A stretch of 8,845 nt of DNA from the IMG/VR virus record IMGVR_UViG_2534681831_000026. The stretch is one strand, 5' to 3'. Positions 6,001-8,845 of this stretch are shown in pieces. Made by a program: the position numbers. This stretch comes from a virus. Its lineage: Duplodnaviria; Heunggongvirae; Uroviricota; Caudoviricetes. Every line of letters starts with the position of its first letter. The stretch's first letter is position 1.

Positions 6001-8845
6001 GCTGGTTTGCCACCAAAACAAAATGGTCAGAAGATTACGCCGATACGGTATGGAAGCGCCTTGAGACCTATGTATTCCCGGATATTGGCGACAGCAACGT
6101 TTCAGATCTGGATACGGGTGATCTGCTTGTTCCGATTAAAAATGCAGAAACACTCGGCTACCTTGAAATTGCCATGCGGATTAAGCAATACATCACCGCG
6201 ATCCTACGTCATGCCGTCCAGCAAAAGCTTATGCGTCATAATCCGGCCTATGATATGGAAGGCGCTGTCCAGAAACCAGAGACGGAACACCGCCCTGCAC
6301 TGGAGCTGGAAGAGATCCCGCTACTGCTTGAACGTATTGATGCCTACAAAGGTCGTGGACTAACTACACTGGCGATTAAACTCAATCTGTTGATTTTCAT
6401 TCGTTCCAGTGAACTCCGCTATGCACGATGGTCAGAAATCGACTTCAACAGTAAGTTATGGGTAATACCAGAAAAGCGTGAAGCGATTGAGCGCGTCAAA
6501 TATTCCACGCGTGGCGCAAAAATGAAACGCCAGCACTTCGTTCCCCTCTGCAGGCAGGCTCTTAAAATACTGAAAGAGATCCGCCAGCTTACCTATGAAG
6601 AAGGTAATGAGGCGGGGTTAATTTTTACGGGCTGTTATGACTCGTTCAAGCCCATGAGTGAAAACACCATCAATAAAGCGCTACGTAAGATGGGCTATGA
6701 CACCACGCAGGACATCTGCGGTCATGGTTTCCGCACGCTGGCATGTAGTGCTCTGATTGAATCAGGGCTATGGTCTGAAGATGCGGTAGAACTTCAAATG
6801 AGCCACAAGGAAAGCAACAGCGTTCGTGCTGCCTATACCCATAAGGCCAAACATCTTGAGCAGCGAAGGTTGATGCTACAGTGGTGGGCAGATTATCTTG
6901 ATGCAAACCGGGATGGGATGGTCAGGCCGTTTGAGTTTGCTCAGAAACAATAATCGCCTTCCAGCAAGCAGACAATCGTAGTAAATAAAAAACGCAGGGA
7001 GGTTTACTCTCCCTGTAATTTGTCACTTACGCCCTTTGTTTGATTGTGCCAAAACAGAGGCTGCAAGTTGCTTCGTTAACTTGCTGGAACGTGGATTATC
7101 AAGAGCTGATGATGCCTTATGCTCCATTTGCCCACTTGTCTGGTTTGATGTCCCACGTTGTGAAAGCGCGGAACCAGCGAGGCTTTTCTGGATAGCTGAA
7201 GCGTTCGGATTAGTCAGCGTTTTTGCAGCGGTAGAAGCCACATTTTCAGAAGTCTGTTTTACGTTTTTACTCATGAAACGAATCCCCAAGAAGTTATGAA
7301 TATTCCTTATGCAGTACTTTCATTTCTAAAAAAACACTATATGAAGTGATAACCATATTTTTTATAAGCCTTAATTTTGCTAAAGGCAATATTATTGCTG
7401 TATAAAATTACAGTAAAAGTTTAATTGATTGATTTTAATCATAAAAATATTCATTCAGACAGGAACAAGAGACGCCAGAAGCTCCTTATCTTCCTTAAAT
7501 GGTTGCCTTCTGAAAATCAAGATTGAGGGCCGTGTTAACATTACGCGGGTAAGATCATTGAACATACATAGCTCAGCAGTTAGCAGATAAGGCTGAAGCA
7601 ACGTATCAACGAGGGAACGCGGTTGCGCTGAAGGATGATTGGACGGCGTATTCTTTTACCAATATTTAACTGCTCTGTTTGAAAACACCGTTATGTTCCC
7701 TATCTCTCATAAAGGACAACTTCCTGACACCAGCTTTTCTGGTTGTATTAAATAAATGATAAGGGAAAAGCTATTACCAATATATAAATACAATGAATAT
7801 ACATAATCTATTCATCACAACTATTTATTCTCCGGATGGCCTATGCCAAATGACCTGTATATAAAAACATTACTGGTTATACATTCAGCGCAAAAGTTGT
7901 CATATATCAATTTATTTTGTTCAATTAGAGTCTACCATAGCCAAAGTAAAATATTTTTATTGAAGGATTAATCCTGATGGCTACGACAGTTATCTCAGCA
8001 TTTAATGAATTTCTCAAAGAGAGCGTAAATTTAGATTCAAATAAAACAATAACTGCTCGCAGTAGTAGAGATTGGTTAATTAGTAAGATTAATAACTTCG
8101 ATAATAATCAAAGTTTTCCTTACATATATCAAGATATTCATATTAACTTTGGTTCTTTTGCTCGAAGGACCAAGATAAGACCTCTTGATGATATAGATAT
8201 CATGATTGGTATAAAAAGTGATTATTGTACTTACTATGAAAATAATGAAGACATAAAAATATTAATAGATTCAAACACAGCAAGATTAAATAATTATACT
8301 CATGATAATACTACATATGTAAATTCAAGAAAAATAATAAATCTTTTTGTTTCTGAGTTGTCGAAAATAGAACAATATTCATCTTCGGAGATCAACAGGA
8401 GACAAGAGGCTGCTACACTAAAGTTGAAATCTTATGATTGGAATTTTGATATAGTACCTTGTTTTATAACAGTGCCAGATATTTATGACAGAACTTTTTA
8501 TCTTATTCCTGATGGGAACGGTCACTGGAAAAAACAGATCCAAGAATAGATAAAAACAGAACAACTGACATAAATGTTAAACATGACGGAAATATAGTTA
8601 AATGTAATAAGAATCGTTAAATAACTGGCAAAAAAGAAAAACAATGCCCACGATGAGTTCATATTTATTAGAAACTATTTTACTTAATTATTATGATAAT
8701 AAATCATATTGTTCACCATATGTTGATATTGAGTTAGAGGGGGTTTTTAGACACATATCTGATGTAATATACAATACTGTAAATGATCATAAAAACATCC
8801 AAGGTGATATTAATAACCTACCTTGGGATGATCGAGTGAAAATAT

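Follow-up and report, generated by a model that had tools for sequence, protein, structure and literature searches.

EcCdnD12-4TM from Escherichia coli SLK172 is a type I cyclic oligonucleotide-based antiphage signalling system (CBASS) that restricts phages of five families by at least 10,000-fold (Richmond-Buccola et al., bioRxiv 10.1101/2023.05.21.541620). We have analysed an 8,845-nucleotide (nt) stretch of DNA, filed as virus record IMGVR_UViG_2534681831_000026 and hereafter called the window, which belongs to an E. coli O111-type chromosome and ends inside a gene whose product is a nucleotidyltransferase of the cGAS/DncV-like kind (CD-NTase). The partner of this cyclase was read from related genomes, by which we mean the complete E. 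coli genomes that match the region. Like EcCdnD12-4TM, the operon consists of a CD-NTase gene followed by a gene for a four-transmembrane S-4TM effector of about 305 amino acids (aa), a likeness of architecture. Both systems do without Cap2/Cap3, HORMA/TRIP13 and an AGS-C fusion (the cyclase here has 331 aa), both come from an enterobacterial host, and the present cyclase is nearest to clade D by solved structures. Unlike EcCdnD12-4TM, the effector in O111 carries two frameshifts. By its gene content the locus is a standard type I CBASS, with a CD-NTase and a predicted S-4TM membrane effector. As a whole, we think it very likely that the window holds the cyclase of such a system, that the effector has decayed in O111 and that the frame breaks seen in the window's copy of the cyclase are artefacts.

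The nearest solved structure is that of CdnD from Pseudomonas aeruginosa ATCC27853 (6P82/6P8U/6P8J), with E values of 3e-13 by sequence and 1e-13 by Foldseek, a TM-score of about 0.65-0.74 and an identity of about 21%. PaCdnD is similarly compact (300 aa). Its D62 and D64, the residues changed in the D62N/D64N entry 6P8J, align with D72 and D74 of the present protein, and its G49-S50 aligns with G59-S60. The present protein has an extra insert of about 40 residues in the N-lobe (about 82-130). The two also differ in their surroundings, as PaCdnD belongs to a type III CBASS with HORMA/TRIP13 regulation and a NucC nuclease effector, whereas here there are no regulators and the effector is a membrane protein. 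SMODS/S-4TM pairs were reportedly predicted by comparative genomics by Burroughs and colleagues in 2015 and by Millman and colleagues in 2020. Set beside such predicted SMODS (PF18144)/S-4TM (PF18159) pairs, with the same gene order and tight spacing, the present locus is a regular member that shows no difference of substance.

The cyclase and its partner gene

The cyclase gene begins with the ATG at 7977, 1,023 nt after the stop codon of a P4-type integrase. The first-pass annotation, made from the sequence of the window, had described a Pol-beta core (G-S ... D-x-D ... D) preceded by an N-terminal helix, a sharp drop in G+C relative to the integrase, and a site about 1 kb downstream of that integrase on a tRNA-Asn island. 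All of these features were recovered. The core consists of G59-S60, D72-I73-D74 and D158 (Table 1), and the G-S, D-x-D and third-Asp catalytic positions are invariant across 30 homologues; the catalytic role of D158 is predicted from the Pol-beta/CD-NTase fold. The integrase has a G+C content of 0.475, the leader (7300-7976) one of 0.331 and the cyclase gene one of 0.283.

Profile searches place the protein among the CBASS cyclases. The Pfam SMODS model PF18144 (cut-off 26.5 bits) gives 41.8 bits for the 190-aa open reading frame (ORF) present in the window and 47.5 bits for the intact protein, and the PADLOC Cyclase model PDLC00802 gives 284 bits for the window ORF and 494.9 bits for the intact protein, over positions 1-331 of 332. 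The scores of the window ORF alone thus show that the motif match is not due to chance. Within NCBIfam, the only matches are CBASS cyclase models (CBASS_cyclase_b, 107.6 bits; CBASS_cyclase_a, 64.4 bits). A sequence search of the PDB has PaCdnD as its best match (3e-13), followed by the CdnD enzymes of Enterobacter cloacae and Salmonella and by E. coli CdnC. The cyclase family is large, with 2,298 matches at E <= 0.001. A literature search for accession WP_000246637 found nothing.

We read the fold from an AlphaFold 2 model of a Rahnella homologue, P0002, which is 60% identical to the present protein; the model was built from a 30-sequence alignment (mean predicted local distance difference test, pLDDT, 85.1; predicted template modelling score, pTM, 0.78). 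In this model, N-terminal helices at residues 5-17 and 21-38 precede the G-S loop, the nucleotidyltransferase sheet and a C-terminal helical lobe, so that the homologue has the bilobed fold of cGAS/DncV-like enzymes. Foldseek searches of the PDB with the P0002 model returned PaCdnD (1e-13), EcCdnC, a beetle cGAS-like receptor, human cGAS and EcCdnD. By sequence as by fold, CdnD enzymes are the closest relatives of solved structure, and CdnC comes next. In agreement with the first-pass annotation, these profiles and folds identify the protein as a CD-NTase, which we describe provisionally as clade-D-like, and WP_000246637.1 is predicted to have nucleotide-cyclising activity.

Certain CD-NTases are activated by proteolysis. 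In EcCdnG, DncV and E. cloacae CdnD, a disordered activation loop of about 30 aa lies exposed at the surface between the lobes, and the literature describes cleavage of such loops in clades A and G and in 18% of clade D (Hobbs & Kranzusch, PMC12991175). Although it belongs to the same superfamily, the present family is compact (331 aa) and shows no long disordered loop in the P0002 model, where stretches of pLDDT below 50 span at most 11 residues (the active-site loop, 61-72). The model thus gives no support to a proteolytic activation loop. Judging from the model, the present cyclase is probably among the roughly 82% of clade D that lack one.

Related genomes supply the second gene. The region is present in 43 of 5,426 complete E. 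coli genomes at 99.8-99.9% identity, and those of the 43 for which a serotype is listed are O111. In these genomes the gene that follows the cyclase after 3 nt is annotated as an "S-4TM family putative pore-forming effector", in the form of three consecutive ORFs. The three pieces match positions 1-90, 106-218 and 219-305 of the 306-position PADLOC model 4TM PDLC00717 and also match Pfam S_4TM PF18159; both the SMODS and the S-4TM Pfam domains score above the gathering thresholds. An S-4TM gene stands in the same orientation, 3-5 nt after the cyclase, in the 43 related genomes and in 18 of 22 related loci, and in 18 of the 22 loci examined the intact effector is a single ORF of 305-310 aa. Loci with a cyclase followed by an intact S_4TM gene occur in Yersinia ruckeri, Enterobacter hormaechei, Rahnella, Paenibacillus, clostridia and a cyanobacterium, and the effector frame is intact in loci L003-L010, L025 and L026. 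The expectation that the cyclase is the first gene of a rightward operon whose effector lies past the window is in this way borne out, with a transmembrane effector as the neighbour.

The gene tables of L001-L010, L025 and L026 contain no Cap2/Cap3, HORMA/TRIP13 or type IV accessory genes; the neighbours there are integrase, pilV and mob genes, type I restriction-modification (R-M) genes, AbiTii and similar. Because S-4TM is the next gene and Cap2/Cap3 and HORMA/TRIP13 are lacking, the operon is assigned to type I. Related operons often adjoin a P4-type integrase and other defence genes, and the order of integrase then cyclase recurs in L003, L025 and L026. The Yersinia ruckeri pair (L003:8730-12999) adjoins a type I R-M system, the Enterobacter pair (L007:8496-11724) adjoins AbiTii and HicAB, and the Rahnella pair (L009:3736-4975) adjoins a helix-turn-helix and reverse-transcriptase pair. 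A search for plasmid-borne copies found none.

Established CBASS biology and the tested E. coli CdnD12-4TM operon suggest how the intact copies may work. Phage infection would switch on the CD-NTase, which, by means of G59-S60, D72/D74 and D158, would make a cyclic oligonucleotide. The S-4TM protein would bind this molecule and disrupt the inner membrane, and the infected cell would die before phage release, a course known as abortive infection. In O111, the split effector should leave the system non-functional.

Frame breaks in the window and decay of the effector

As written in the window, the cyclase frame stops at 8549, leaving the 190-aa ORF, and coding continues in other frames. The true frame runs in frame 1 over 7977-8528, in frame 3 over about 8529-8595, in frame 1 again over 8597-8622 and in frame 2 over 8624-8845. 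The first-pass annotation had hinted at fused ORFs; the frame is indeed broken, at the three sites given in Table 1, and does not stay open to the window end. Mending the three insertions or deletions (indels) yields exactly residues 1-289 of the 331-aa RefSeq protein WP_000246637.1. The window differs from the closest genome, NZ_CP077473.1, at seven positions (63, 212, 252, 266, 8528, 8596 and 8623), six of which are single-base indels, mostly an extra A after T. All seven lie within about 320 nt of a window end, with none in the 8,260 nt between, and the chance of such clustering is about 1e-8 under a uniform distribution. At the left end, three indels and one substitution fall within 266 nt. 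The window is probably the whole contig of a draft assembly. Because all seven differences cluster near its ends, the three frame breaks in the cyclase are most likely, from the sequence comparison, errors at a contig end and not biology. Among about 15 billion catalogued proteins the 190-aa truncated product is absent, and at least 1,000 contigs encode the intact protein. Many entries of the cyclase cluster are "partial" and vary in length, a sign that breaks within this very AT-rich gene are common in draft assemblies.

The state of the effector in O111 is a different matter. When intact effectors are aligned to O111 DNA, they fall successively into three frames. Set against intact copies, the O111 gene has gained one nucleotide within an A-run (+1, nt 271) and lost two within an AT tract (-2, nt 651). 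All 43 complete O111 genomes keep the cyclase ORF unbroken, and in each of them the effector is in three pieces with the same length of 1,916 nt. This uniform length shows that the lesions are fixed, and phase variation at the frameshift sites was ruled out for the same reason. When the effector, repaired conceptually, was used as a query, it matched intact 305-aa proteins at 89-90% identity on contigs L025 and L026. The flanks of these contigs share only about 76-78% identity with E. coli, so the contigs come from enterobacteria other than E. coli. They carry this island with its gene order unchanged: integrase, cyclase (95% aa identity), intact S-4TM (about 90%), pilV, bundlin-like pilin, TraD and MobA relaxase. 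The cyclases of O111 and these intact copies give a ratio of non-synonymous to synonymous substitution rates (dN/dS) of about 0.15, and the effectors one of 0.16-0.18, values low enough in both genes to point to purifying selection over most of the divergence and to a recent inactivation. Because the effector has two frameshifts while intact copies exist elsewhere, the O111 system is most probably a recently inactivated remnant with an intact cyclase ORF. The functional system implied by the first-pass annotation is thus not what these genomes contain, and the window's own cyclase is frame-broken as it stands.

That the enzyme lies outside CBASS altogether, as the minimal nucleotidyltransferase (MNT) of an MNT/HEPN pair or as an ANT/Lnu resistance enzyme, has practically no probability in our judgement. 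The Pol-beta G-S...D-x-D core is common to all these families, but the profiles of Pfam, NCBIfam and PADLOC return SMODS/CBASS cyclase families alone, and no Pfam or NCBIfam match to ANT/Lnu or MNT families appears at E values up to 1. Its length of 331 aa, the helical lobe at the C-terminus and the cGAS-like fold moreover set the protein apart from minimal MNTs, and its partner is S-4TM, not HEPN. The first-pass annotation had likewise set aside the MNT/HEPN and aminoglycoside-resistance types, and we agree. A genuine triple mutation deserves more weight, though we consider it unlikely. Under this alternative, the strain represented by the window independently pseudogenised its cyclase, so that neither gene of the CBASS remnant works any longer. 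The sequence as written does contain the stop and two further frame changes, and once the lineage had lost its effector, the cyclase may have come under weaker selection. However, one would then have to accept three indels and no substitution in 1.5 kb, placed 222-317 nt from the window end and mirrored by the indels and substitution at the opposite end with none between, in a gene whose truncated product is seen nowhere else.

The opposite alternative is that the strain in the window has a fully functional CBASS, with an intact cyclase and an intact S-4TM gene just past the window. Intact copies of the island do occur in other enterobacteria, and the effector of this strain does lie outside the window. 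Yet the window is 99.9% identical to the O111 genomes over the full 8.8 kb, including an insertion sequence (IS) fragment, and the same two effector frameshifts are carried by 43 of 43 O111 genomes without length variation, which makes a working system very improbable. We are equally doubtful that the intact O111 cyclase is kept as an orphan with an effector-independent role, for example through another receptor, or that the three effector fragments act together. The ORF is intact in all 43 genomes despite the broken effector, and its dN/dS is 0.15, but that ratio covers divergence that mostly preceded the frameshifts, and the similar value for the effector makes it uninformative on later retention. 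O111 is also near-clonal at the locus (at least 99.9% identity), leaving little time for the cyclase to decay. It would be a considerable surprise to find the cyclase serving as an orphan signalling enzyme across the O111 lineage of Shiga toxin-producing E. coli (STEC), or the A-run and AT-tract frameshift sites switching a toxic effector on and off.

A type I CBASS with a decayed effector is the reading that we prefer, and several points weigh against it. Both NCBIfam scores are below the 200-bit equivalog cut-off, and the protein does not count as an equivalog under either model. The predicted structure is that of P0002 and not of the O111 protein, and the placement in clade D comes from the nearest solved structures, not from phylogeny. 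Catalysis and phage defence by WP_000246637.1 are expected from what is established for CBASS. The cyclase in the window is frame-broken as written, for which a genuine triple mutation is the alternative, and the state of the effector in the window's strain is deduced from genomes that are 99.9% identical.

Genomic setting

The CBASS operon is the AT-rich cargo directly behind the P4-type integrase of a mobilisable island of about 12 kb at tRNA-Asn in E. coli O111. The tRNA-Asn beside mtfA forms the left boundary of the island and is presumed to be its attachment site. No convincing repeat of the tRNA-Asn 3' end, as a candidate attR, was found within 12.5 kb of L002. Beyond the CBASS genes, the island encodes a shufflon-type pilV adhesin, a bundlin/PilS-like pilin, traD and a MobA/MobQ relaxase (L002:18890-26740; L025:9081-16784; L026:5998-10897), and it is this content that marks the island as mobilisable; the L025 island has AbiGi in addition. 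In several O111 genomes, IS1203 has truncated pilV and the rest of the island is deleted (L001), and the relaxase of the L002 island is frameshifted. The whole island appears to be decaying in O111. In O111 strain E2863, shiA and yeeO flank the island and are frameshifted pseudogenes by annotation (L001:18417-19705, 22948-24436).

Table 1. Positions of the features identified in the window.
Feature	Position	Strand	Basis or remark
CD-NTase/SMODS cyclase gene up to the window end, codons 1-289 of 331	7977-8845	+	translations; alignment to the intact gene
Catalytic G59-S60	8151-8156	+	sequence
Catalytic D72-I73-D74	8190-8198	+	sequence
Putative third catalytic Asp, D158 (WNFDIVP)	8448-8450	+	invariant column in family alignment (D159 of P0002)
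First frame break: A6 run, A7 in all 43 related genomes	8529-8534	+	alignments; creates stop 8547-8549
Second frame break: extra A relative to related genomes	8596	+	alignments
Third frame break: extra A relative to related genomes	8623	+	alignments
tRNA-Ser	4343-4432	-	between the lambdoid prophage end and mtfA
mtfA			between tRNA-Ser and tRNA-Asn
tRNA-Asn (GTT)	5424-5499	+	ARAGORN; Rfam tRNA 72.6 bits; RefSeq annotation of the same locus
P4-type tyrosine integrase, 424 aa (WP_001345280.1 in relatives)	5679-6953	+	Pfam Arm-DNA-bind_3, Phage_int_M, Phage_integrase; annotation
GC-rich hairpin, terminator-like on both strands	6995-7015		consensus scan only
Convergent small ORF, 83 aa (WP_000042272.1), hypothetical	7023-7274	-	RefSeq
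AT-rich non-coding leader, 33% G+C	7300-7976	+	composition; directly upstream of the cyclase

Outside the O111 cluster and L025/L026, low-G+C Firmicutes relatives of the cyclase (Desnuesiella and a Clostridiales metagenome-assembled genome) are 59% identical, against about 60% for enterobacteria. Since the Firmicutes relatives are equally close and the G+C content of the cyclase is 28%, these sequences suggest that the operon may have reached the enterobacteria by horizontal transfer from a low-G+C donor. The leader upstream of the cyclase shows no tblastn or blastn similarity to the upstream regions of L003, L006, L009, L011 and L013, and no conserved ORF or regulatory element in it is common to related operons. 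Promoter-like sites in the leader are not commoner than in shuffled sequences, and a scan with Rfam for structured RNAs found nothing beyond the two tRNAs. Between the integrase and the AT-rich cargo lies the small ORF that encodes WP_000042272.1, a protein rich in Ser, Ala, Thr and Asn, with normal G+C and no Pfam family; the GC-rich hairpin separates it from the P4-type integrase.

The left part of the window is the end of a lambdoid prophage, with an exonuclease gene, a DUF4224 gene and an integrase split by an IS3-family fragment. The match between the window and the O111 genomes spans all 8.8 kb, including this fragment, and by sequence these genomes are near-clonal at the CBASS locus. 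The exonuclease has 823 aa in relatives, where the coding sequence starts near window position 250 (250-2723, +), and it carries an Rv2179c-like 3'-5' exoribonuclease domain in its C-terminal part. In the window its N-terminus is disrupted by the additional bases at 252 and 266, such that the longest ORF in the window starts at 489 and has 744 aa; this break is the same end-of-contig effect as in the cyclase. The lambdoid integrase beside tRNA-Ser (2985-4290) is split by the IS3-family transposase fragment (3201-3443, minus strand; C-terminus of the integrase core), and RefSeq tags the gene in relatives as frameshifted or incomplete. This junction differs between strains, as a full IS1203 or a deletion stands there in other O111 genomes.

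Meaning for annotation and for O111

The first-pass annotation had left room for a new defence system, but the partner gene shows a type I CBASS of a catalogued kind. The system is already known: Pfam and PADLOC have models for both genes, RefSeq names the effector, and the architecture has been validated in E. coli. The RefSeq "hypothetical protein" WP_000246637.1 can now be named as a CBASS cyclase. The window also carries a caution for annotation in general, in that frame breaks near contig ends in very AT-rich genes should not be taken for pseudogenes. Beyond correct annotation the importance of the locus is small, and its mild curiosities are the probably artefactual frame breaks and the presence in O111 of an intact cyclase beside a dead effector. 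For the O111 STEC lineage, this last combination means that defence censuses based on counts of hidden Markov model matches could score its copy, with an intact cyclase and a broken effector, though the system is probably dead.

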